Below are positions 27 to 31,219 of a stretch of DNA of 32,754 nucleotides, in pieces (position 1 is the stretch's first letter; the number at the start of each line of letters is the position of its first letter). The position numbers and the translations under genes are program-made. Below the pieces are notes generated by a model that was not told where the DNA came from, ran no database searches, and saw nothing but the letters and a program-made list of their open reading frames with translations. The DNA is from a virus: the UHGV virus genome UHGV-0097046; one strand, 5' to 3'.

Positions 27-51
27 GGGACTCTTCGAAGTCCCTTTTTTT
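27..51 (+). terminator. Hairpin gggact-cttcga-agtccc followed by TTTTTTT; candidate intrinsic terminator for transcription entering from the left
   Basis: 6-bp perfect stem plus T-run read directly from sequence; abuts stop of the convergent minus-strand ORF 50..292. Confidence 0.5.
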
Positions 52-292
52 ATGCAACAATTCGAAGTGTAAGTTTCTTATGTTGTGTAGGTTTAGTTTC
101 ATTTCGCCACTCAGGGAATACATGATCCATCATAACCGCATTAGTCTCATCAATCAGCTTTAAGGACTTTCTCAACGCCTTATTATCAGCTTTAAGTGTT
201 TTAATCTCTGATTCCATCGCTACCATTCTTTCTTTCATTTTGGTAATTTCTAACATCAGATTACCCAGAAATTCTTTGTTTTGATTCATCAT
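50..292 (-). CDS. Hypothetical small coiled-coil protein (80 aa)
   Basis: ORF with GAGGTGA Shine-Dalgarno-like sequence upstream of ATG; heptad-like K/E-rich sequence; no recognisable family. Confidence 0.5.
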   Translation of the reverse strand: MMNQNKEFLGNLMLEITKMKERMVAMESEIKTLKADNKALRKSLKLIDETNAVMMDHVFPEWRNETKPTQHKKLTLRIVA

Positions 293-307
293 AAATTCAC
301 CTCTCTA

Positions 308-1303
308 TTAAGCTGCGTATGCGTAGGCGCTGTAGTTGGTGTCGTAGATAGCGTCATGCAGTGCCATCTGTGCTTCGCGGATCTCGTCTTCGTTTACTTC
401 AATCTCTTCTTGTTCTTCTTCGGTATCTTCCCAAGTGGTTTTGAATTTAGCCATAAAGTTATTGCGCAGGGATTCAAAGTTAGTAACAGGTGCGGATTCT
501 TCTTCAACTTCAACCGGAACAACTACCGGAGCAACTTCTTGTTCTACTTCTGCAACAACACCCCAGCGATAGTTAAGGAGTTCTTCCAGTTCTTCATCAA
601 TGGATTTTTCTTCAACTGCTTCAACTTCAACCGCTGCTACTTCGAAAGTGGTTTCCTGTGCTGCCAGTTCAGCTTTCAGAGATGCGTTTTCAGCTTCCAG
701 TTCAGCGATGCGTGCTTTCAGTGCTTCAACTTCGGAATATTCAACCACTGCAACTTCTTCTTTAACTTCTTCAACTACTACCGGAGAAACTTCTTTCTGT
801 GCTTCTTTTTTGCAGAAGAAGGAGGAAGTAACCTGTAATGCGTGGTTGTAGAAGGAACCGCCTTTAGCGGTGTTAACAGTACCAGAAACATCCTTTACAG
901 TGGATTCGGTAGCAACAGTACGGAAGCGTTTTGCGACTTCCTGGGTCTCTACGCCGTATTCGTTACGTTTGCTCTTGTGATGCATTACAGCACGGAAGCC
1001 GGAAGCCGTTTTAACAACAGCCAGATAGTAAGTTTCATCAGCTTTAACAGCACGAGCGAAGCAATAAACGGATTCACCTTCTACCAGTGTAGGTTTAACG
1101 TGACGTTTGTCGAAACGGTTGGTGATCTGCCATTCAGCACCGTCTTTGATGCCAGCATTTTGACGCATTTCGGTCAGAGTCTTACCTGATACTACTTCAA
1201 AGGATTTGTCTTGTTTGCTTGCTTTACCTTCCATGACAGTGATGTTCAGTTTGCCGTTGGATTTAATAAACATGTTGAAGGTAATGCGCTTAGAATTTTT
1301 CAT
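308..1303 (-). CDS. Hypothetical early protein, 331 aa, globular N-terminal domain plus coiled-coil and strongly acidic E/V-rich C-terminal half
   Basis: Long ORF, AGGAG RBS 7 nt upstream of ATG; EALKARIAELEAENASLKAEL coiled-coil; long acidic tail; function not recognisable from sequence. Confidence 0.6.
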   Translation of the reverse strand: MKNSKRITFNMFIKSNGKLNITVMEGKASKQDKSFEVVSGKTLTEMRQNAGIKDGAEWQITNRFDKRHVKPTLVEGESVYCFARAVKADETYYLAVVKTASGFRAVMHHKSKRNEYGVETQEVAKRFRTVATESTVKDVSGTVNTAKGGSFYNHALQVTSSFFCKKEAQKEVSPVVVEEVKEEVAVVEYSEVEALKARIAELEAENASLKAELAAQETTFEVAAVEVEAVEEKSIDEELEELLNYRWGVVAEVEQEVAPVVVPVEVEEESAPVTNFESLRNNFMAKFKTTWEDTEEEQEEIEVNEDEIREAQMALHDAIYDTNYSAYAYAA

Positions 1304-1419: not shown

Positions 1420-1602
1420 TTACCAGACCTCGGCGGTAATCTTTACTTTAATGTCATACTTCTTTAAGAGTTTGTGGAAGGTTGATTGATCAATACCTTC
1501 ACCTTTAAACCATTCACCCATCACTACATCAGGTGTCAGTTCAAAATAACGCTTTGCCATTTCTAAAACGATTTCACGAGTGAACTTAACAGGTCGTGCC
1601 AT
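1420..1602 (-). CDS. Small Hin/resolvase-type helix-turn-helix DNA-binding protein (60 aa)
   Basis: GGAGG RBS; motif ARPVKFT...GIDQSTFHKLLKKYDIK paralogous to ORF 4638..4871 and to the C-terminus of ORF 4904..5497; resembles the DNA-binding domain of Hin-like recombinases (basic arm followed by HTH). Confidence 0.55.
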   Translation of the reverse strand: MARPVKFTREIVLEMAKRYFELTPDVVMGEWFKGEGIDQSTFHKLLKKYDIKVKITAEVW

Positions 1603-1704
1603 CTTATATCCTCCTAAATCTGGAATAATGATTTCTTAAAAAAGAGCTTTTCGCTCTGAACAATTCTATTTATAAAATGTTTTTCGAAAAACCCTGTAAA
1701 ACCA

Positions 1705-1720
1705 CTGTATATCCGATCAG
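1705..1720. promoter_or_regulatory. LexA-like SOS box candidate (CTGTATATCCGATCAG)
   Basis: CTG-N10-CAG with CTGTAT left half; lies ~5 bp upstream of a candidate leftward -35 (TTTACA) for the 1420..1602 gene. Confidence 0.4.
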
Positions 1721-1789
1721 TGGGAGCACGAATTGCTAAAGAGAAGATTAATAATTAATCAATTCGTACATTATTCAATCGAATAAGCA

Positions 1790-1823
1790 CTGTATGTTTA
1801 GCCAGTGCTGTATGAATTAACAG
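1790..1823. promoter_or_regulatory. Two adjacent LexA-like SOS boxes (CTGTATGTTTAGCCAG and CTGTATGAATTAACAG)
   Basis: Both fit CTG-N10-CAG with CTGTAT left half; the second matches about 14 of 20 positions of the E. coli consensus TACTGTATATATATACAGTA; adjacent arrangement as in colicin-type double SOS operators. Confidence 0.45.
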
Positions 1824-1960
1824 TGAATCAGGGGATTTTCAGAAGTGAACAATCATTTTCATGCATGTATTTATACACGAAAAAATCTTGCGTATCATCA
1901 ATATGTGGATTGTTTCGAAAATTTCAACCCCTACCAACGAGAAAAAGTATAAAATAATCC

Positions 1961-1974
1961 TTGACAGTTGTCAA
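1961..1974. promoter_or_regulatory. Inverted repeat TTGACA-gt-TGTCAA, operator-like palindrome containing a -35-like hexamer
   Basis: Perfect 6-bp arms with 2-bp spacer read from sequence. Confidence 0.35.
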
Positions 1975-2000
1975 TACACTTGATCTAAGCGAGAAATGAC

Positions 2001-2167
2001 TATCAAAATTTTTGTGTGAAAATGGCGGATAACGATTATCAACCTTTATAACCTATTATAGCACGGCGACCTTTTGATGATTCTTTTTAAATCATGCATT
2101 TACAGCGGTTTTTGGTGATTTTCTGGTTAAATAATATACAAGAATTTTCTATCAAAATTTTTGATGA
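2001..2167. repeat. Two copies (~150 bp apart) of an ~18-bp element cTATCAAAATTTTTGnnGAAAA containing the palindrome TCAAAA-T-TTTTGA
   Basis: Copies at about 2001-2020 and 2150-2170; second copy is a perfect 13-bp palindrome; candidate dimeric regulator binding sites. Confidence 0.4.
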
Positions 2168-2170
2168 AAA

Positions 2171-2272
2171 ACCTACACTACAAACCTACGCTTTAAAGGG
2201 ATTGGCCTACACTACACTAGCCAGTAAACCTACACTATAACACCTACACACCTACACTAACCCTACACTTCA
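2171..2272. repeat. Array of about seven direct CCTACAC(T) heptamer/nonamer repeats (iteron-like)
   Basis: Occurrences near 2172, 2185 (variant), 2206, 2229, 2243, 2251, 2264 with irregular 8-23 bp spacing in a non-coding stretch. Confidence 0.5.
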
Positions 2273-2615
2273 ATCTCATAAGTGTATGATCTTGAAAGAC
2301 ATTTCACCACACAGACCATAGAATATAAAATTCGAACTAACGTTCTCCTTTTTGCTCGTTTTCTCTCACTACGTTCAAGAAAGATCTCGCAAAAAGAATA
2401 CGGCGTAGCCGTGCGCGAAGCGCCCATCAACACCTTCTAAGACCTGCAAGCAGGATTCGAAAGGGATTGGATAGTTCGCTTCGCTCACGTTCACACCTAC
2501 GGCGTTCACTCGCTTTTGAAAGGATTTTCTCAGAAAGGGATTTAATACTAGTTACTAACTGATTCTAGTAAACGAACGAAGTGAGTAACAATCACTTTCT
2601 AGAAAGGTATTGGTT

Positions 2616-2645
2616 ATCCCTTCGGGATTGCAACCTTCGGTTGCC
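2616..2645 (+). other. Two adjacent stable hairpins with UUCG tetraloops (atccc-TTCG-gggat; gcaacc-TTCG-gttgc) in the leader upstream of the rightward early genes
   Basis: Stems and tetraloops read from sequence; candidate RNA processing or stabilising structure or part of a small RNA. Confidence 0.35.
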
Positions 2646-2844
2646 AAATTGCTTCCTGATTATTATTTCTCCAAAAGAAAGATTCTTATATTCTAAAGAT
2701 ACTTCTTCGTTTTGATGATGATTTATTCAAAATCTATGAAGGAGGGCTTTGCCCGACTGAATACAATCACCTTTCATAATAACAAGAATTTTCTCTTTAT
2801 AAATAATATTAGATTGATTCACTTTCTTTTAGAGAATTTCCACT

Positions 2845-3673: not shown

Positions 3674-4489
3674 ATGAATACTGTTACTACTATGAATACT
3701 GCTATTAAACCTGCTTCCGTGTCTCTGGTTGTTGATAACACCAAACCGCTGACCATGTCTTCTCGTCAGATCGCTGAATTTACCGGAAAAGAGCATAAAA
3801 ACGTTAAACGTGATATTAAATCCATGCTCGATGCTCTGGAATTAGATGTGCTCAGTTTTGAGCGCACCTATCTTGATCAGTGTGGACGTGAACAAACCGA
3901 ATATCACCTTGACGAAGAAATGACGCTGACTCTTGTCACTGGTTACGATGTTAAGCGTCGAATGATCGTTATTCAGGAATGGAAACGACTGAAAGAAGAA
4001 AATGAAAAACTGCGTCAGGAACGTTTAGCCGTTAACCCGTATGCAGACTTTGAAGAAACCGACTGGATCGAACTGGCGTTAAAGAAAACTCGTGAAAATA
4101 AAAAGCTGATTGAACTTCATGTTCGTAAGTCTGTAGACAGCCATTCAATGACACGTCTGTTAGGCGCTAAAAAGGGCGCTACGAAGGTTAAAGAAGCACT
4201 GACGGCCTTACGTACTGCTGGATACATTGAGCGCGTCTATGATGAAAATAACAAGCCGTGTGGGTATGTTGCTAATGACTCTTCTCTGTCTTTCTGCCGC
4301 ATGAATGCTCACTACCAGCTTGAGTTTACTGTTGATGTGCTTCCGGTGCTGGTTGAATTGGGTGTTCTGGAAGAAGAACAAAAAGCAACTCTGAATCTTC
4401 CTAAGCCGAACAACACTATTCTGATTCAAAATAAAGCGGCTGAACGTCTCCGCCAGAATGTTGGATCACTGGAAGTCTTCGGACTGTAA
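3674..4489 (+). CDS. Rha-family phage regulatory protein (antirepressor-like N-terminal domain) with unknown C-terminal domain
   Basis: N-terminal motif LTMSSRQIAEFTGKEHKNVKRDIKSMLDALE matches the Rha domain signature (...IAE.TGK.H.NV.RDI...); AAGGGGA RBS; ends with TAATAA. Confidence 0.7.
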   Translation: MNTVTTMNTAIKPASVSLVVDNTKPLTMSSRQIAEFTGKEHKNVKRDIKSMLDALELDVLSFERTYLDQCGREQTEYHLDEEMTLTLVTGYDVKRRMIVIQEWKRLKEENEKLRQERLAVNPYADFEETDWIELALKKTRENKKLIELHVRKSVDSHSMTRLLGAKKGATKVKEALTALRTAGYIERVYDENNKPCGYVANDSSLSFCRMNAHYQLEFTVDVLPVLVELGVLEEEQKATLNLPKPNNTILIQNKAAERLRQNVGSLEVFGL

Positions 4490-4637: not shown

Positions 4638-4871
4638 TCAAAAACCTGTTGCTTCTACGATCTGACCATCACCGATCTGAACATAGAATTTAATGTCTAA
4701 CTTCTTCATATTCTTATAGAATTGGGCAATTGAAATCCCATGTTCACTAAGAATCTGTTCTTTCGCTTCCTTACCACGATCCGCTGTATAATAAGCGTAG
4801 GCAATATCAGCCATTTGTTCAGCGTTAAAACGGGCAGGACGACCGCGAGTAGCTTTAGTAGTCATAGTCAT
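4638..4871 (-). CDS. Small Hin/resolvase-type HTH DNA-binding protein (75-77 aa) with N-terminal GRP basic arm
   Basis: TKATRGRPARF...GISIAQFYKNMKKLDIK; paralog of 1420..1602; GGAGA RBS suits the second ATG (start about 4865). Confidence 0.55.
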   Translation of the reverse strand: MTMTTKATRGRPARFNAEQMADIAYAYYTADRGKEAKEQILSEHGISIAQFYKNMKKLDIKFYVQIGDGQIVEATGF

Positions 4872-4903: not shown

Positions 4904-5497
4904 TTAGAGTGACTTACATTTTATCGGAAAAAGTTCTCCATCGTCAACCGACATAAAGAACTCTGCCTTAATCCCGTACTTCTTCAACCGTGAATAGTAT
5001 GTACCCCGACTTATATCAACCTTGCGAAGCACTTCAAAGAAGGATTTAGGATCGTTGTAATAGTGGCTGTACTTCACGTTAGCGAGTTCAACGAATAGTT
5101 CCCTTGTATCACCATAGCCTTTCTTGAAAGCCTCGTTACGATAGCGTGTAATAGCGTGATTCAATCTCTTCTGTTTCAACACTTCTCGGATCGACTTCCA
5201 CTGCAACCGATAGATAGGACCGTCATCAATGCGATAATAACGCTTGATATCAAAATCAAACCAATCTCGGACTCTCCGAAACTCTGTATGTGATGTTCTA
5301 TGCTTCTTAAAGAAGTTGTGAATATCGGTATACCCATGATCGCGATACAACTCGATTAAAATCTCTTTCGCTTCTTCGCGACTAAAACCGGATGTAGTGT
5401 AATCGGTCTTTAAGTGCTTATGTTTTACTGGCAAACGATATTCATGATCGGTACAAGACAAGGCTAATTCATCTCTTTCTTGCTGATTAATTAGCAT
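4904..5497 (-). CDS. Hypothetical protein (197 aa) with C-terminal Hin-type HTH-like segment
   Basis: Strong AAGGAGGG RBS; C-terminal ISRGTYYSRLKKYGIK resembles the HTH of the two small paralogs; divergent from terminase gene. Confidence 0.6.
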   Translation of the reverse strand: MLINQQERDELALSCTDHEYRLPVKHKHLKTDYTTSGFSREEAKEILIELYRDHGYTDIHNFFKKHRTSHTEFRRVRDWFDFDIKRYYRIDDGPIYRLQWKSIREVLKQKRLNHAITRYRNEAFKKGYGDTRELFVELANVKYSHYYNDPKSFFEVLRKVDISRGTYYSRLKKYGIKAEFFMSVDDGELFPIKCKSL

Positions 5498-5583
5498 ACA
5501 CCCTCCTTAAATCTTAATACCGTATTTATCAAAATATCAACAATTTAATAAATACCTTCATATTTCGTAATGAGGGTAATTAC

Positions 5584-7488
5584 ATGAAACTGATTTCTAA
5601 TAAGGCAAAATTAAAAAAGATTCTCAAAAATATCTCTGCTGCAATTCGTCCACCTAAAACCATGAAACCTAGCGAATGGGTAGAGGCTAATGTAGTTGCG
5701 ACCGATGGTGTTAAAGCCGGATCGCTAATTAAATTGCATCCCTTCCAACGTGGAATGATGGACGCGATCACCGAAGACCGTAGAAAAATTGTGTTTAAAT
5801 GTTCGGCACAGTTGGGTAAGACCATGATTCTTAACGGAATTATCTTCCATCGGATCGCGAGTAACCCTACTAATATCGGGGTGTTGCAATCGAATGTCCG
5901 CGAGTTGAATAGCTGGATCGCTGGTAAGGTGAAGCCAGTATTAGAGGCAACACCAGAATTAAAGGCGATGATCACCGACAAATCAGATCGCAATGCCGTT
6001 AACAACTCATCGATTATTCAGCTTCGTAACGGATCGTTTATGTATTTCATGTCGTTGAATAGTCCGTCACATCTTCGCGGTAAAACACTCCCTTTGATTA
6101 TTCTTGATGAAGTTGATGCGGCTGATGAGTCAGACGAAGGGAACCCGATCCAGCTAGCGGAACAACGCGCAACCACTTTCGGGGAAGATGCAAGGATCGT
6201 AATTGCTTCCACTCCAACCGCTCGTGATGGGGCGATTAACCAACAATGGGAACTCTCGGATAAGAGAAAATATCATGTCGTTTGCCAGCATTGCGGACAC
6301 AAGCACGTAATGGAATGGAGTAGAGTTTTCTTTGATTGGCATACGATTAACTGTAAATCACTGCCGAATCCAGATACTGCCGTTTATCGTTGCCCGTCAT
6401 GTGAAACTGATTGGACAGAAGGGGATCGCCTACGTGCTGTTGCTCAAGGTGAATGGATTGCTACAGAACCAAATGCGGAAGTAATCGGTTTTCATGCTAA
6501 CCGCCTTATGTCTCCGTTTAGTTCTATCCGTGCGTGTGTGGTGGACTTTGCTGATAGCTACGCGAATATGTCACTAGCAACGTTCTACAATACAGTCCTC
6601 GGTGAAACCTTCGATGATCTTAACGAAGATCGCACAGCCGACGAACTGGAAACGCTGAAAACTGATATTAGCCTAGACAATATTCCTGATGATGTACTGG
6701 CTCTGGTAGGTGGAGTTGACCAGCAAAAAGACCGTCTGGAATCTACCTTGCTGGGTATCTCTCGTAAGGGGATATGCGTAGTTGATCACCGATCATTCTA
6801 TGATGTGAACTGCGAACGCCACGAATCACCAGCATATGACCAGCTTTATAACTTCCTGAAAGCGAAATTCTATACCCGATCCGGTGAACGAATCCCGATG
6901 CTATCTGCTTTCGTGGACTCATCGAACGGACGAGCTACAAACGTGATCTACCGTTTTTGCACTAGGTGGCAAAACCTATGCGCCATTAAAGGCGCAAGTA
7001 ATGCTGATGCTCCAATCCTTCCGGCTAAGGACACAAGAACGGGCGGTTTTACTCTCAAAATTCTGGGCGTAAACAACCTTAAGACGATGATCCGTGAAAT
7101 GATTAACCGGAACTTGAGAGATGGCGATCCTCATACTGTCTTCCAGATTGGTGACGTTCCTGATGACTATTGCGAGCAATTGCTTTCTGAACAGTTGAAA
7201 CGGCAGGGTAATACCACACGTTGGGTAAAAGTTGGTCAGCAACGAAACGAGGCTCTCGACTGCCTGGCTTATTCCTATGCTGCTTCTCGCCATGTACTCA
7301 ATAAAATGTCATGGGAAAAACTCGAAGCCATCAAAGATAGTTTGAACCGTGAACCAGAAGAACCCGTAAAAGCTCCTGAAACGCAATCTGACGAGCAAAT
7401 CGAAGAAACTAAGCCAATCACACGACCACAACGTCAAAACATCGCCAGACGCCCAAATAGAGGCCGTAGCTGGGTAACATCGTTCTAA
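5584..7488 (+). CDS. Terminase large subunit, lambda gpA-like
   Basis: P-loop-like CSAQLGKT, Walker B LIILDEVD, and recognisable similarity to lambda gpA segments (EW..AN, PFQRG.M.A, HCGH zinc-ribbon-like, TVLGETF, RNEALDCLAYSYAA); first gene of rightward late operon. Confidence 0.88.
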   Translation: MKLISNKAKLKKILKNISAAIRPPKTMKPSEWVEANVVATDGVKAGSLIKLHPFQRGMMDAITEDRRKIVFKCSAQLGKTMILNGIIFHRIASNPTNIGVLQSNVRELNSWIAGKVKPVLEATPELKAMITDKSDRNAVNNSSIIQLRNGSFMYFMSLNSPSHLRGKTLPLIILDEVDAADESDEGNPIQLAEQRATTFGEDARIVIASTPTARDGAINQQWELSDKRKYHVVCQHCGHKHVMEWSRVFFDWHTINCKSLPNPDTAVYRCPSCETDWTEGDRLRAVAQGEWIATEPNAEVIGFHANRLMSPFSSIRACVVDFADSYANMSLATFYNTVLGETFDDLNEDRTADELETLKTDISLDNIPDDVLALVGGVDQQKDRLESTLLGISRKGICVVDHRSFYDVNCERHESPAYDQLYNFLKAKFYTRSGERIPMLSAFVDSSNGRATNVIYRFCTRWQNLCAIKGASNADAPILPAKDTRTGGFTLKILGVNNLKTMIREMINRNLRDGDPHTVFQIGDVPDDYCEQLLSEQLKRQGNTTRWVKVGQQRNEALDCLAYSYAASRHVLNKMSWEKLEAIKDSLNREPEEPVKAPETQSDEQIEETKPITRPQRQNIARRPNRGRSWVTSF

Positions 7489-29262: not shown

Positions 29263-29535
29263 CTATGATTTATTTTCTTGTTCTATGAAAATCTTTCTCA
29301 CCTCATCAGAATAAATGTCTAGTGATTCCTCATAACATTTTCTGTATTCACCGTAATTACTGGTGGTCTTTTGACATAGCAATTTCAATGTCTTATGTGC
29401 TCCATCAATGAAAGCATCTTCTCTATAGGTTAGCGGTCTACGCATTTCTTGGTCTACGGTTGCCAATGCCAGGCAAGAATTCATAGATAAAATCAAACCT
29501 AAAATCTTAATCATCTTCATTAGCTTAAATTCCAA
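29263..29535 (-). CDS. Small secreted protein (about 83-90 aa) with signal peptide
   Basis: N-terminal hydrophobic segment MIKILGLILSMNSCLALA with AxA-type cleavage site; overlaps recombinase stop by 11 nt (co-transcribed). Confidence 0.55.
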   Translation of the reverse strand: MEFKLMKMIKILGLILSMNSCLALATVDQEMRRPLTYREDAFIDGAHKTLKLLCQKTTSNYGEYRKCYEESLDIYSDEVRKIFIEQENKS

Positions 29536-31219
29536 ATTCTTGTAATGGACCTGGTATTTCTTCTTCTGGTTTCCAGTTCTTATCTGTCAGCATGTCTAAA
29601 CATGGATGCAGAACAAGCCCGTTACTCTCCAGAATCTGCCTATCATTGATAGTCTTCAAATCAACGAAGATCCGGCCTTTCCTCGGTCCTCTTGAATTTT
29701 CTATTACAACTCTCTGGGTCTTGCCATCGATGTATTCCAGTACAAACAAGTTTTTGTACTTGTCAATCCTGCTACACCCGATCCGTTTTAGAGCTTGCTT
29801 AATCTTAAACCGGACCTTAATGCGATCCTCGTTGTAAACATCTTCTAAATCAAATTCTGCGAGCTTCTCCCAGCCTTGAGAGTCAACAGAATACATTTCC
29901 TCTTCTGCCATCTTAATTTGATTGTAGAGTGTTTCACGCTCGCTATTGAGGGTAGTAATCTGATCGGCTAGCTCCTTCGTTGCTCCTGTCATAGCAGAAA
30001 GGGTAATCAGGTTATCAATCTTGCGTGATATTTCATCAATCTGTACTTTCAAAGCCGGAACCGGATTAGCCTTATCTTCAGCAATCCAGATTTTATCAGC
30101 CAGCAATTGCAATACAGCTTTCTCTAATTGGTCGCCGCGAAAACTCCAGTTTGTATGCACACATTCAATACGACTAGAGCGCATTGCATCGCATGAATAA
30201 CGATATTGGTTAGGCCGTCTGTTTGTTCCTTTCACCTTAACCATAGCGGAACCGCAATGTTCACATTTCAATAGACCAACACCACTAAGCAAGGGAATAG
30301 GTTTAACTTCTTCTTTGTCTCCAAAGTTACATGCTCTAACACCAATGCTTTTCTTAAGGTGATAAAACTCAGCGTCATCTAGCACACGAGGATAATAATC
30401 CTTTAACTCATACTTAACGCCATCTACAGAGATTTCCTTGATACCAATCAAAGCGCGGGTATGGAACAACCTTTCAATCATTGCCCGTGACCAGTTTGAA
30501 TGCCTCTTGTGACTTGCGGCTGGTGGTGGTGTGTATGTCGCGTTAAGGTGATCCAGTATCTCGGCGGTTGACCGTCCATTCCTGCGTAATTCCACAACTT
30601 CCTGAACAATAGGGAAGAAGACCGGATGAGGAAGCACATAACCAGATGTGGTATCAGTCCACCACATATTCTTTCCAATTTCCTCGATTGCAACAGCCGG
30701 ATTTTGTGGATTTTCTTGATGAGCTTTAATCTTAATCAGTGCGCTTGAGTTAGTACGATTGCGCTTAGTCTGGCTTTCCTCATTACCACGGATGAATAAA
30801 AGGATGGAGAACATCAGGTCCATCGGGTTAGCGGTAACAGTATCCAGCGAGTAGATCTTGTTATCCATGCCAGTAACAATGGTTATCCCCCTACGGATGA
30901 TTGAAAGGAATAACTCCTGCGCACTGACAATATCGGCACGGGATAAACGGTCCAAGTTTTCGATGAATAGCCAGCTACCAACAGGAACGGATCTACCTAT
31001 TGCATCAAGGAAACGAGATAGCGCCCCTGTTTTGGAGTTAGCACCCTTAAACGCAGATACACCCAGATCCTGATAATCATTTACCAGTTCAAGGTCATAC
31101 TTTACCGCAATCTCTCTAGCCATCCTGATTTGTCGTTCATAACTCGAACCATCATTCTGACGCATAGACGAGAAGCGAATATACGAATACAGTTTAGTTT
31201 TCATACCATTTCCAAACAA
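29525..31219 (-). CDS. Large serine recombinase (serine integrase/resolvase family, 559-564 aa)
   Basis: N-terminal catalytic domain motifs YIRFSSMRQ (active-site Ser) and DRLSR; large C-terminal region with Cys-rich zinc-ribbon-like segment (CEHCGSAMV...YRYSCD...ECVH) and coiled-coil; track start is TTG at 31219, alternative ATG at 31204. Confidence 0.85.
   Translation of the reverse strand: MFGNGMKTKLYSYIRFSSMRQNDGSSYERQIRMAREIAVKYDLELVNDYQDLGVSAFKGANSKTGALSRFLDAIGRSVPVGSWLFIENLDRLSRADIVSAQELFLSIIRRGITIVTGMDNKIYSLDTVTANPMDLMFSILLFIRGNEESQTKRNRTNSSALIKIKAHQENPQNPAVAIEEIGKNMWWTDTTSGYVLPHPVFFPIVQEVVELRRNGRSTAEILDHLNATYTPPPAASHKRHSNWSRAMIERLFHTRALIGIKEISVDGVKYELKDYYPRVLDDAEFYHLKKSIGVRACNFGDKEEVKPIPLLSGVGLLKCEHCGSAMVKVKGTNRRPNQYRYSCDAMRSSRIECVHTNWSFRGDQLEKAVLQLLADKIWIAEDKANPVPALKVQIDEISRKIDNLITLSAMTGATKELADQITTLNSERETLYNQIKMAEEEMYSVDSQGWEKLAEFDLEDVYNEDRIKVRFKIKQALKRIGCSRIDKYKNLFVLEYIDGKTQRVVIENSRGPRKGRIFVDLKTINDRQILESNGLVLHPCLDMLTDKNWKPEEEIPGPLQEFGI

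Follow-up and report, generated by a model that had tools for sequence, protein, structure and literature searches.

Interchangeable repeat arrays are co-inherited with orphan proteins in a putative early control region of an Escherichia coli prophage family

The stretch analysed here (the window) is the 32,754-nt virus genome UHGV-0097046, a tailed-phage genome that belongs to an Escherichia coli prophage family of ~35 kb, and our subject is its gene-free region 1603-2844, which contains an array of short CCTACAC repeats. The main finding is that, in this family, the type of repeat array corresponds one to one, and without exception, to the type of N-terminal domain (N-domain) of a 313-371-aa orphan protein encoded two genes to the left, p331 in the window. 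From sequence comparison, array and orphan protein are a putative new DNA-recognition pair, and what the pair marks is most likely a replication origin or its switch. The reading that we tentatively favour, at somewhat less than an even chance, is that 1603-2844 serves a temperate E. coli phage as its divergent early control region, with a central docking platform for a phage-specific DNA-binding protein, i.e. an iteron/initiator-like origin-plus-control region. It is placed ahead of its main rival, an immunity or regulatory switch.

The initial annotation, made from the DNA letters of the window, had described a dense non-coding control region without convincing open reading frame (ORF), and this description held. 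The longest ORFs of 1603-2844 are of 44-62 aa, none of these small ORFs matched a Pfam family, and the alignment with nine close relatives shows indels of 1, 2 and 22 nt, which rules out a conserved reading frame. The CCTACAC array is real: six exact copies and one CCTACGC are present on the plus strand (starts at 2172, 2185, 2206, 2229, 2243, 2251 and 2262), with spacings of 13, 21, 23, 14, 8 and 11 nt that keep most copies in helical register. The motif has 10 matches in the whole window against 2.1 expected, a count reached in 0 of 100 shuffles, and six of the 10 are packed into 97 nt. Among relatives the array gains or loses 22-nt units. Also confirmed were the duplicated TCAAAATTTTTGA element, in the form of an exact 15-mer, CTATCAAAATTTTTG, at 2000-2014 and 2149-2163 (0.3 expected), the inverted repeat TTGACAgtTGTCAA at 1961-1974, an exact one that the window contains only once, and the GAAAGGGATT blocks, since AAAGGNATT occurs at 2195, 2460, 2534 and 2603 (4 of its 6 window matches). 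The repeat features are:

2172-2272, plus strand: seven direct CCTACAC(T) repeats, helically phased, allele-specific
2000-2163, plus strand: AT-rich segment between the two CTATCAAAATTTTTG copies
2460-2611, plus strand: dispersed (G)AAAGG(G/T)ATT repeats at 2460, 2518, 2534 and 2603, plus one at 2195 within the array

An extended form of the array repeat, AAACCTACAC, has two extra copies inside the p80 (82-91) and p331 (1084-1093) genes. Both are on the minus strand, opposite in orientation to the array copies, and the window would be expected to hold about 0.06 10-mers of this kind.

Related loci were gathered from IMG/VR (27 via p155 and 12 via p331), then from complete genomes and metagenome contigs; they are designated by L numbers where they must be told apart. 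In all loci that include both flanking genes, a gene-free gap of 1.16-1.6 kb separates a small helix-turn-helix (HTH) gene from p155. This gap is a mosaic. The HTH gene together with ~48 nt forms one segment; module A (window 1650-2168) exists as two main alleles, with a divergent left part in L007; module B (window 2170-2510) has at least four alleles; and the right part (2510-2844) is common to nearly all loci. In window-type loci 2320-2660 is almost invariant, and the flanks and neighbouring genes are variable. At the module B position each allele carries a different short direct-repeat array, the arrays being unrelated in sequence:

B1 (window): CCTACAC, 6-9 copies
B2 (L023): TTTTTGCCCCTGAAA, 4-9 copies
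B3 (L004): TCCCCG, ~15 copies with an 11-nt period, plus ACCTA-type 8-mers
B4 (L007): TCCCCCGGTATTAGG, ~7-8 copies, plus GATGTACAAG, 14 copies with a 10-11-nt period

Over the alleles, array spacings are multiples of ~10.5-11 nt (10-11 and 21-23) and copy number shifts by 22-nt steps, so that helical phase is kept. For the initial annotation, a lack of conservation of the repeats in related genomes would have counted as a refutation. The repeats are conserved in relatives of the same type; many others lack CCTACAC and have, in the same place, a different array accompanied by a different cognate protein. As the array is swapped together with the protein, a protein-binding role is strengthened rather than refuted.

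Two observations on the arrays are reported for completeness. In the TCCCCG (L004 5209-5460) and TCCCCCGG (L007 4998-5430) alleles the minus strand has runs of GGGG at intervals of 11-22 nt, as is canonical for G-quadruplex formation; the CCTACAC allele has no such pattern. The 17-mer TTCGCTTCGCTCATGAG gave 17 matches in IMG/VR, all of them in unrelated GC-rich coding DNA, and was set aside.

The genes to the left of the region that bear on the pairing are the following:

308-1303, minus strand: p331, candidate cognate binder of the CCTACAC array (1:1 co-occurrence)
50-292, minus strand: p80, small coiled-coil protein co-inherited with p331
1420-1602, minus strand: HTH60, first gene of the leftward operon, whose alleles shuffle independently of the array
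1348-1379, no strand assigned: GC hairpin between HTH60 and p331, scoring as a plus-strand terminator; transcription of the leftward operon may be partially terminated by it

The exception-free pairing covers 24 viral, 51 genomic and 12 metagenomic loci. In IMG/VR, all 12 CCTACAC loci have the p331 N-domain and all 12 GCCCCTGA loci have the 313-aa type; L004 and L007 have their own arrays and their own proteins, two proteins each matching two arrays. In complete genomes, the 18 records with a B1 array are exactly the 18 with a p331 N-domain, and the 33 with a B2 array exactly the 33 with a full 313-aa N-domain. The metagenome loci (7 and 5 of the two types) agree as well (12/12). Within an allele type the N-domains are 98-100% conserved.

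The p331 gene lies ~0.9 kb to the left of the array, across freely recombining segments. Both HTH60 and module A, which are located between protein and array, are seen in both combinations with either array type; because these intervening segments shuffle freely, the linkage is not mere adjacency, and its persistence across such DNA argues for a functional coupling. The simplest coupling would be that the N-domain reads the array. The alleles of TerS, HTH60, p155, Rha, p77, p197 and TerL are unlinked to array type; TerS, for instance, is ~90-97% identical over array types and its two N-terminal (HTH) variants occur with both. The small HTH proteins (1420-1602 and 4638-4871) and Rha, which the initial annotation had proposed as ligands of the repeats, find no support as such: they do not co-vary with the array and p331 does so throughout.

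p331 has a β-rich N-domain (~170 aa) followed by a coiled coil and an acidic region, and its C-terminus reads ...YAYAA. The array-associated proteins are all built in this way: their β-rich N-domain is variable, their tail is conserved in part, and a coiled coil and an acidic stretch lie in between. Comparison of p331 with Pfam, PHROG, NCBIfam, PADLOC and PDB sequences, and at the fold level, gave no match, and no HTH, winged-helix or CI-, C- or Rep-like repressor domain was detected in p331 or its allelic counterparts. Its homologues are near-identical E. coli proteins and three clusters (50% identity) among 1.84 billion representative proteins. The tail of p80, ...TLRIVA, resembles that of the second class of array-associated proteins (L004, L007), and p80 looks like the coiled coil and tail of that class minus the N-domain. 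The C-termini ...AYAYAA, ...LLDFAA, ...TLRLVA and ...TLRIVA (p331, p80, L004 2308-3309 and 3337-4350, L007 1860-2951) resemble ssrA-type ClpXP degrons.

Between the array and HTH60, a strong leftward promoter, P_L, is predicted to produce a long leader:

1946-1974, minus strand: P_L, near-consensus sigma-70 promoter, TTGACA-17-TATACT, 11/12
1660-1939, minus strand: predicted structured leftward leader RNA, a multi-helix domain
1636-1657, minus strand: leader terminator or attenuator, hairpin AGAGCGAAAAGCTCT and U-run, with ~35 nt left to the start codon of HTH60

The -35 box of P_L (1969-1974) falls inside the palindrome TTGACAgtTGTCAA, which is a candidate operator. In the other module A allele (L023) two tandem 12/12 promoters abut the array, and the terminator is present with an altered loop (L023 4656-4670), again ~35 nt before the HTH60 start. 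Leader length is predicted at 300-390 nt over both alleles. The z-score of the minimum free energy of the window leader is -5.2 for the minus strand versus -2.8 for the plus strand, and the unrelated L023 leader gives -5.7 on the minus strand. In ten A1-type sequences, 97.9% of the cells of the structure are paired, with 5 compensatory pairs versus 1.5 in shuffles (the observed value was reached in 0 of 500, and slid controls gave 0-1). The terminator helix (helix 9) varies by G-U changes only, and the leader has many invariant G-U pairs, which would be A-C on the opposite strand. Given the low divergence among the sequences, the support from covariation is moderate. The proposal that the region might encode a structured RNA therefore survives for the minus-strand leader (1640-1945) and not for the hairpins that the initial annotation had singled out.

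The latter belong to the right half, in which the following were found:

2296-2331, plus strand: two overlapping weak rightward promoter candidates, 9/12 each
2400-2423, plus strand: pair of GNA-triloop mini-hairpins, GGCGTAGCC and GCGCGAAGCGC
2475-2505, plus strand: motif TTCGCTTCGCTCACG (GCGAAGC on the minus strand), then hairpin ACACC-TAC-GGCGT
2616-2644, plus strand: two adjacent GC hairpins of 5 and 6 bp with UUC triloops (2616-2628 and 2630-2644)
2656-2740, plus strand: cassette homologous to the PeSL elements of Krischvirus (RB49, Phi1, JSE)
2743-2761, plus strand: covarying hairpin GGGC-TTT-GCCC, then invariant GA-CTG-AAT
2779-2807, plus strand: p155 promoter candidate

The conserved block begins at the -10 of the 2296-2331 candidates, the -35 not being kept in L011, L012 and L018. 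The mini-hairpin pair is found in the same order in L023 and in Escherichia phage DCP80 (PQ671644). The TTCGCTTCGCTCACG motif is present in every aligned allele save L004/L007, and twice in DCP80. More generally, B1, B2 and DCP80 have in common an ordered set made of the two GNA-triloop mini-hairpins, TTCGCTTCGCTCA, a further triloop hairpin and CTAG-rich palindromes; in L004 and L007 their place is taken by a 7-bp hairpin whose loop is UGCG. The double hairpin at 2616-2644 had been read as two UUCG-tetraloop hairpins: the hairpins are real, and are kept or, in L004, L007, L076 and L077, swapped for other hairpins with varied loops, but the symmetric stems close UUC triloops and not C(UUCG)G. 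A strand assignment from 'UNCG' loops was dropped for that reason.

The segment 2656-2740 is 76-80% identical over ~85 nt to intergenic sites in 59 phage records; the alignment partners include L044 (RB49, 1501-1575) and L045 (JSE, 1501-1582). PeSLs have been described as strong early promoters to which a stem-loop terminator is attached (Arbiol et al. 2010, PMC2839356). The candidate promoter of the window cassette, TTGATG-17-TATGAA, was not called in the promoter scan and its -10 varies among relatives; L013 has a deletion of 2597-2763 that includes the PeSL-like segment. The best-covarying element is the hairpin 2743-2753, with stem variants GGGC/GCCC, GGC/GCC (which reads GCGAAGC), TGGC/GCCA and, in DCP80, CCC/GGG; it is always followed by (G)A-CTG-AA, the CTG being at 2756-2758. 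At G4ori, the DnaG start site is the T of a 5'-CTG-3' on the 3' side of stem-loops (PMC6783573), and GCGNAGC mini-hairpins have been reported in the literature at phage priming sites; the hairpin-CTG layout resembles such a G4-type priming signal. Further right, the core of the candidate p155 promoter, TTATAAATAAT, is near-invariant, i.e. identical in all aligned loci except L019, L027 and L077 (TTATAAATACT).

These elements can be assembled as follows under the origin-plus-control reading. Through its coiled coil, p331 would form oligomers on one face of the CCTACAC array, and the two would be an iteron/initiator-like pair that would mark the phage replication origin, and bound p331 would feed back on the adjacent P_L. 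Transcription from P_L would yield the ~300-nt structured leader, ending in the terminator right before HTH60-p331-p80, and the supply of initiator would be gated by terminator read-through. To the right of the array, the mini-hairpins and the hairpin-5'-CTG-3' would serve, after origin opening, as single-strand priming signals of the G4 type, and the PeSL-like stem-loop/promoter cassette together with the proximal promoter would drive p155-p51-Rha.

Neither a replication protein nor a CI-like repressor is recognisable in the prophage, by NCBI annotation or by Pfam, PHROG and NCBIfam scans. In a prophage without recognisable replication gene, p331 is the only candidate with a putative DNA specificity. 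It is this absence of another replication candidate that favours the origin reading, together with the iteron-like geometry of the repeats, the priming-like motifs downstream and the gene order: P_L, small HTH, terminator and p331 parallel pR-cro-tR1-O of lambda. The conservation of the mini-hairpin set and of the hairpin-CTG as far as DCP80 was counted on the same side, as were the exception-free pairing across freely shuffling segments and P_L with its structured leader and terminator. 'Origin or regulatory switch', the phrase of the initial annotation, is still the best class of explanation.

Several results weigh against an origin. There are zero DnaA boxes in the whole window, and the 15-mers at 2000 and 2149 depart from the strict IHF consensus, WATCAANNNNTTR. 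The AT-rich segment 2000-2163 is missing from L017 and A2-type loci, i.e. it is dispensable in other alleles. GCGNAGC shows no window-wide enrichment, and the hairpin-CTG could equally be a 5'-terminal mRNA hairpin or stabiliser. Most loci that lack p331 retain three CCTACAC copies; two arrays and two proteins, as in L004 and L007, are odd for a single origin; and p331 has no match to any known Rep, O or primase-helicase family.

We consider the immunity or regulatory switch possible and, on balance, unlikely. Here the arrays would be operators, through which the p331-type proteins would repress or activate the divergent early promoters (P_L and that of p155-Rha) in an allele-specific manner; the alleles would be heteroimmunity types in the style of Mu or P2, with repressors binding to several direct repeats. 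Discrete allele types and highly conserved N-domains are typical of immunity modules, and the succession of N-domain, coiled coil and tail resembles oligomerising repressors such as Mu Rep. The arrays are directly upstream of P_L, abutting it or within ~35 nt of it in the A2 and L017 loci, and a regulator pair would fit the doubled arrays and proteins of L004 and L007. In the window, however, the array is ~200-300 bp upstream of the P_L -35 and overlaps no good promoter, 7-15 sites are unusually many for an operator, and the several small HTH proteins and the promoter-overlapping palindrome are better repressor/operator candidates. The phage would, moreover, be left without candidate replication function.

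Co-resident prophages touch on both possibilities. Strain UTME-9 has one prophage of each array type, which was counted for immunity. E. coli BS74R-D has two co-resident prophages of the family, in ycdX and hicB, with different recombinases; over a 2.4-kb tract they are 99-100% identical (L064 12258-14674 and L066 9569-~11980) and their flanks are 74-95% identical. The tract coincides exactly with the block made of the 313-aa protein, HTH60 and non-coding region, and it looks like the product of gene conversion or module exchange. It was counted for the origin reading and against immunity, an identical module in two prophages of one strain being possible but unexpected for an immunity determinant. 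As to co-residence itself, these strains are uninformative between origin and immunity.

It appears improbable that the region works mainly through RNA, in the form of one long structured regulatory RNA or leader, or two (leftward 1939->1640, rightward ~2335->2844), with repeats that would be secondary and serve as transcribed target or decoy sites. The strong minus-strand z-scores of two unrelated leader alleles, their covariation and a promoter-plus-terminator layout are typical of an RNA gene or attenuated leader. For 2332-2665 the z-score is -4.8 on the minus strand versus -2.1 on the plus strand, and hairpins of the right half are conserved or replaced by others. Yet no Rfam family was matched at gathering thresholds and only chance-level snoRNA-type matches (E around 1-5) appeared at permissive ones; a tRNA scan was also negative. 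The alignment fold of 2590-2775 gives local hairpins only, with no long-range RNA structure, the long-range pairing around 2410-2489 is lost in DCP80, L013 does without 2597-2763, and the strict co-inheritance of array and protein is left unexplained. Antisense pairing of 2170-2860 with the flanking genes was also considered, and amounted to chance-level 9-11-mers.

Lastly, a packaging or segregation site (cosB/pac-type terminase-binding repeats or a ParR-bound centromere) is very improbable: phased short repeats with flanking A/T-rich elements do resemble cosB, pac and parC, the region is situated between terS and terL, and the DCP80 record begins inside the homologous non-coding region, but both readings fail their defining tests, since TerS, N-terminal HTH variants included, does not co-vary with the array, the partition site suggested by the initial annotation is unlikely in an integrated element that encodes no partition ATPase/GTPase, and the record start is uninformative in a chimeric assembly. 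A lambda-cos-like CGGCGACCT at 2066-2074 was rejected as a chance match, being neither conserved in relatives nor tracking with TerL.

Profile scans identified the main landmarks of the window, which also encodes structural and lysis genes:

5584-7488: large terminase (TerL), lambda-type gpA
3674-4489: Rha/Ant-like gene
29525-31219: large serine recombinase

The small terminase TerS (phrog_57) occupies the left end of the prophage and is separated from terL by ~7 kb. Chromosomal prophages matching the window were found in 58 of 5,426 complete E. coli genomes (~1%). The ~35-kb element (NZ_CP028733 2523684-2558849, L042/L043) has hicB as its insertion site, as seen in strain H2, and relatives are integrated in ycdX; integration is via the large serine recombinase. 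Characterised phages include no close relative of the window, and the only GenBank record with a related terminase is that of DCP80 (TerL 43% identical). The DCP80 'complete genome' is a chimera, in which ~26 kb akin to this prophage family adjoins T4-like (Gaprivervirus) DNA that has a duplicated rIIA; its first 1,287 nt are the homologue of the 1603-2844 region. A plasmid database search, a one-genome-per-species scan with p155 and a search of IMG/VR with the DCP80 TerL gave no match.

A few side observations concern the rest of the prophage. Its early genes are nearly all orphans. HTH60 (1420-1602), p77 (4638-4871) and the p197 C-terminus (4904-5497) have a common motif, ...F.KLLKKY.IK..., and appear to be paralogous small DNA-binding proteins without database family. 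The sole strict IHF-consensus match near the early region, TATCAACAATTTA at 5535-5547, is in the 87-nt p197-terL gap (5497-5584), where a late promoter or cos may lie. Some family members carry cargo inserts with NUMOD3 homing-endonuclease-like, DEAD/DEAH helicase family and GIY-YIG nuclease genes (L064 35193-35966 and 42244-45633), and others have LprI lysozyme-inhibitor morons at the left end (L042 8243-9013).

To conclude, should the pairing be due to binding, this family offers at least four protein/DNA-array recognition pairs that are natural, orthogonal and based on an unknown fold. In that case a replication or switch module would also have been identified for a prophage family present in ~1% of E. 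coli genomes and annotated only as 'hypothetical'. A bolder proposal, which we find more doubtful than either the origin or the immunity reading, is that p331-type proteins are an unrecognised family of sequence-specific DNA-binding proteins that polymerise on phased arrays and, with the terminator-gated leader RNA, constitute a new type of phage origin or switch; a 35-kb temperate phage would then replicate without conventional replication genes. The PeSL cassette that the family has in common with virulent T4-like phages implies that very different coliphages have exchanged non-coding control DNA. Regions of this kind are skipped by gene-centred pipelines. Specificity-matched repeats and protein are a known class in phage control regions; new are the protein family, the existence of several array alleles, the long leaders with their terminators and the link to PeSLs.

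Among known systems, the iteron origins (lambda O/ori-lambda and the lambdoid ori alleles, P4 alpha with its ori/crr octamers, R1 oriR) are alike in having short direct repeats at ~11 or 22 bp that adjoin an early promoter, and a nearby phage protein whose specificity domain changes with the repeats, which takes the form of covariation here. They differ in that p331 is without similarity to the Rep, O and alpha families, in the lack of DnaA boxes and in the two arrays and two proteins of some alleles; in lambda the repeats are inside O, and here they are outside the gene. The G-site of plasmid R1 is ~400 bp from oriR, a distance comparable to the ~480 bp between the hairpin-CTG and the array. 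With G4oric and the d(GCGNAGC) signals, the region shares GC mini-hairpins of the GCGNAGC class and a conserved 5'-CTG-3' two nt 3' of a covarying hairpin; there is no sequence homology, and its hairpins are dispersed over 350 nt and not enriched window-wide.

The immunity regions of Mu (c with O1-O3 and IHF) and P2 (C) likewise combine divergent early promoters with discrete specificity types and with proteins whose N-terminal specificity domain precedes a coiled coil and then a C-terminal tail. Unlike them, the p331-type proteins have no detected HTH or winged helix, the sites are far more numerous, and the window array is off the promoters, ~200 bp from P_L, the arrays of L023 and L017 abutting it. 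The Krischvirus PeSLs resemble the cassette not only in the identity noted above but also in their intergenic location and in the GC stem-loops upstream (2616-2644 here). They reside in T4-like phages and number dozens, whereas the host here is a temperate siphovirus-like prophage with one copy, and the aligned -10 hexamer (TATGAA/CATGAA) is without the final T. As to the lambda pR'/6S RNA/tR' unit, no Q-like gene or site was identified, the leader of the present family is much longer and more structured, and the genes downstream are early-type instead of late; the two are alike in their layout, in which a near-consensus promoter is followed by a leader, here of 300-390 nt, and by an intrinsic terminator right before the first gene.

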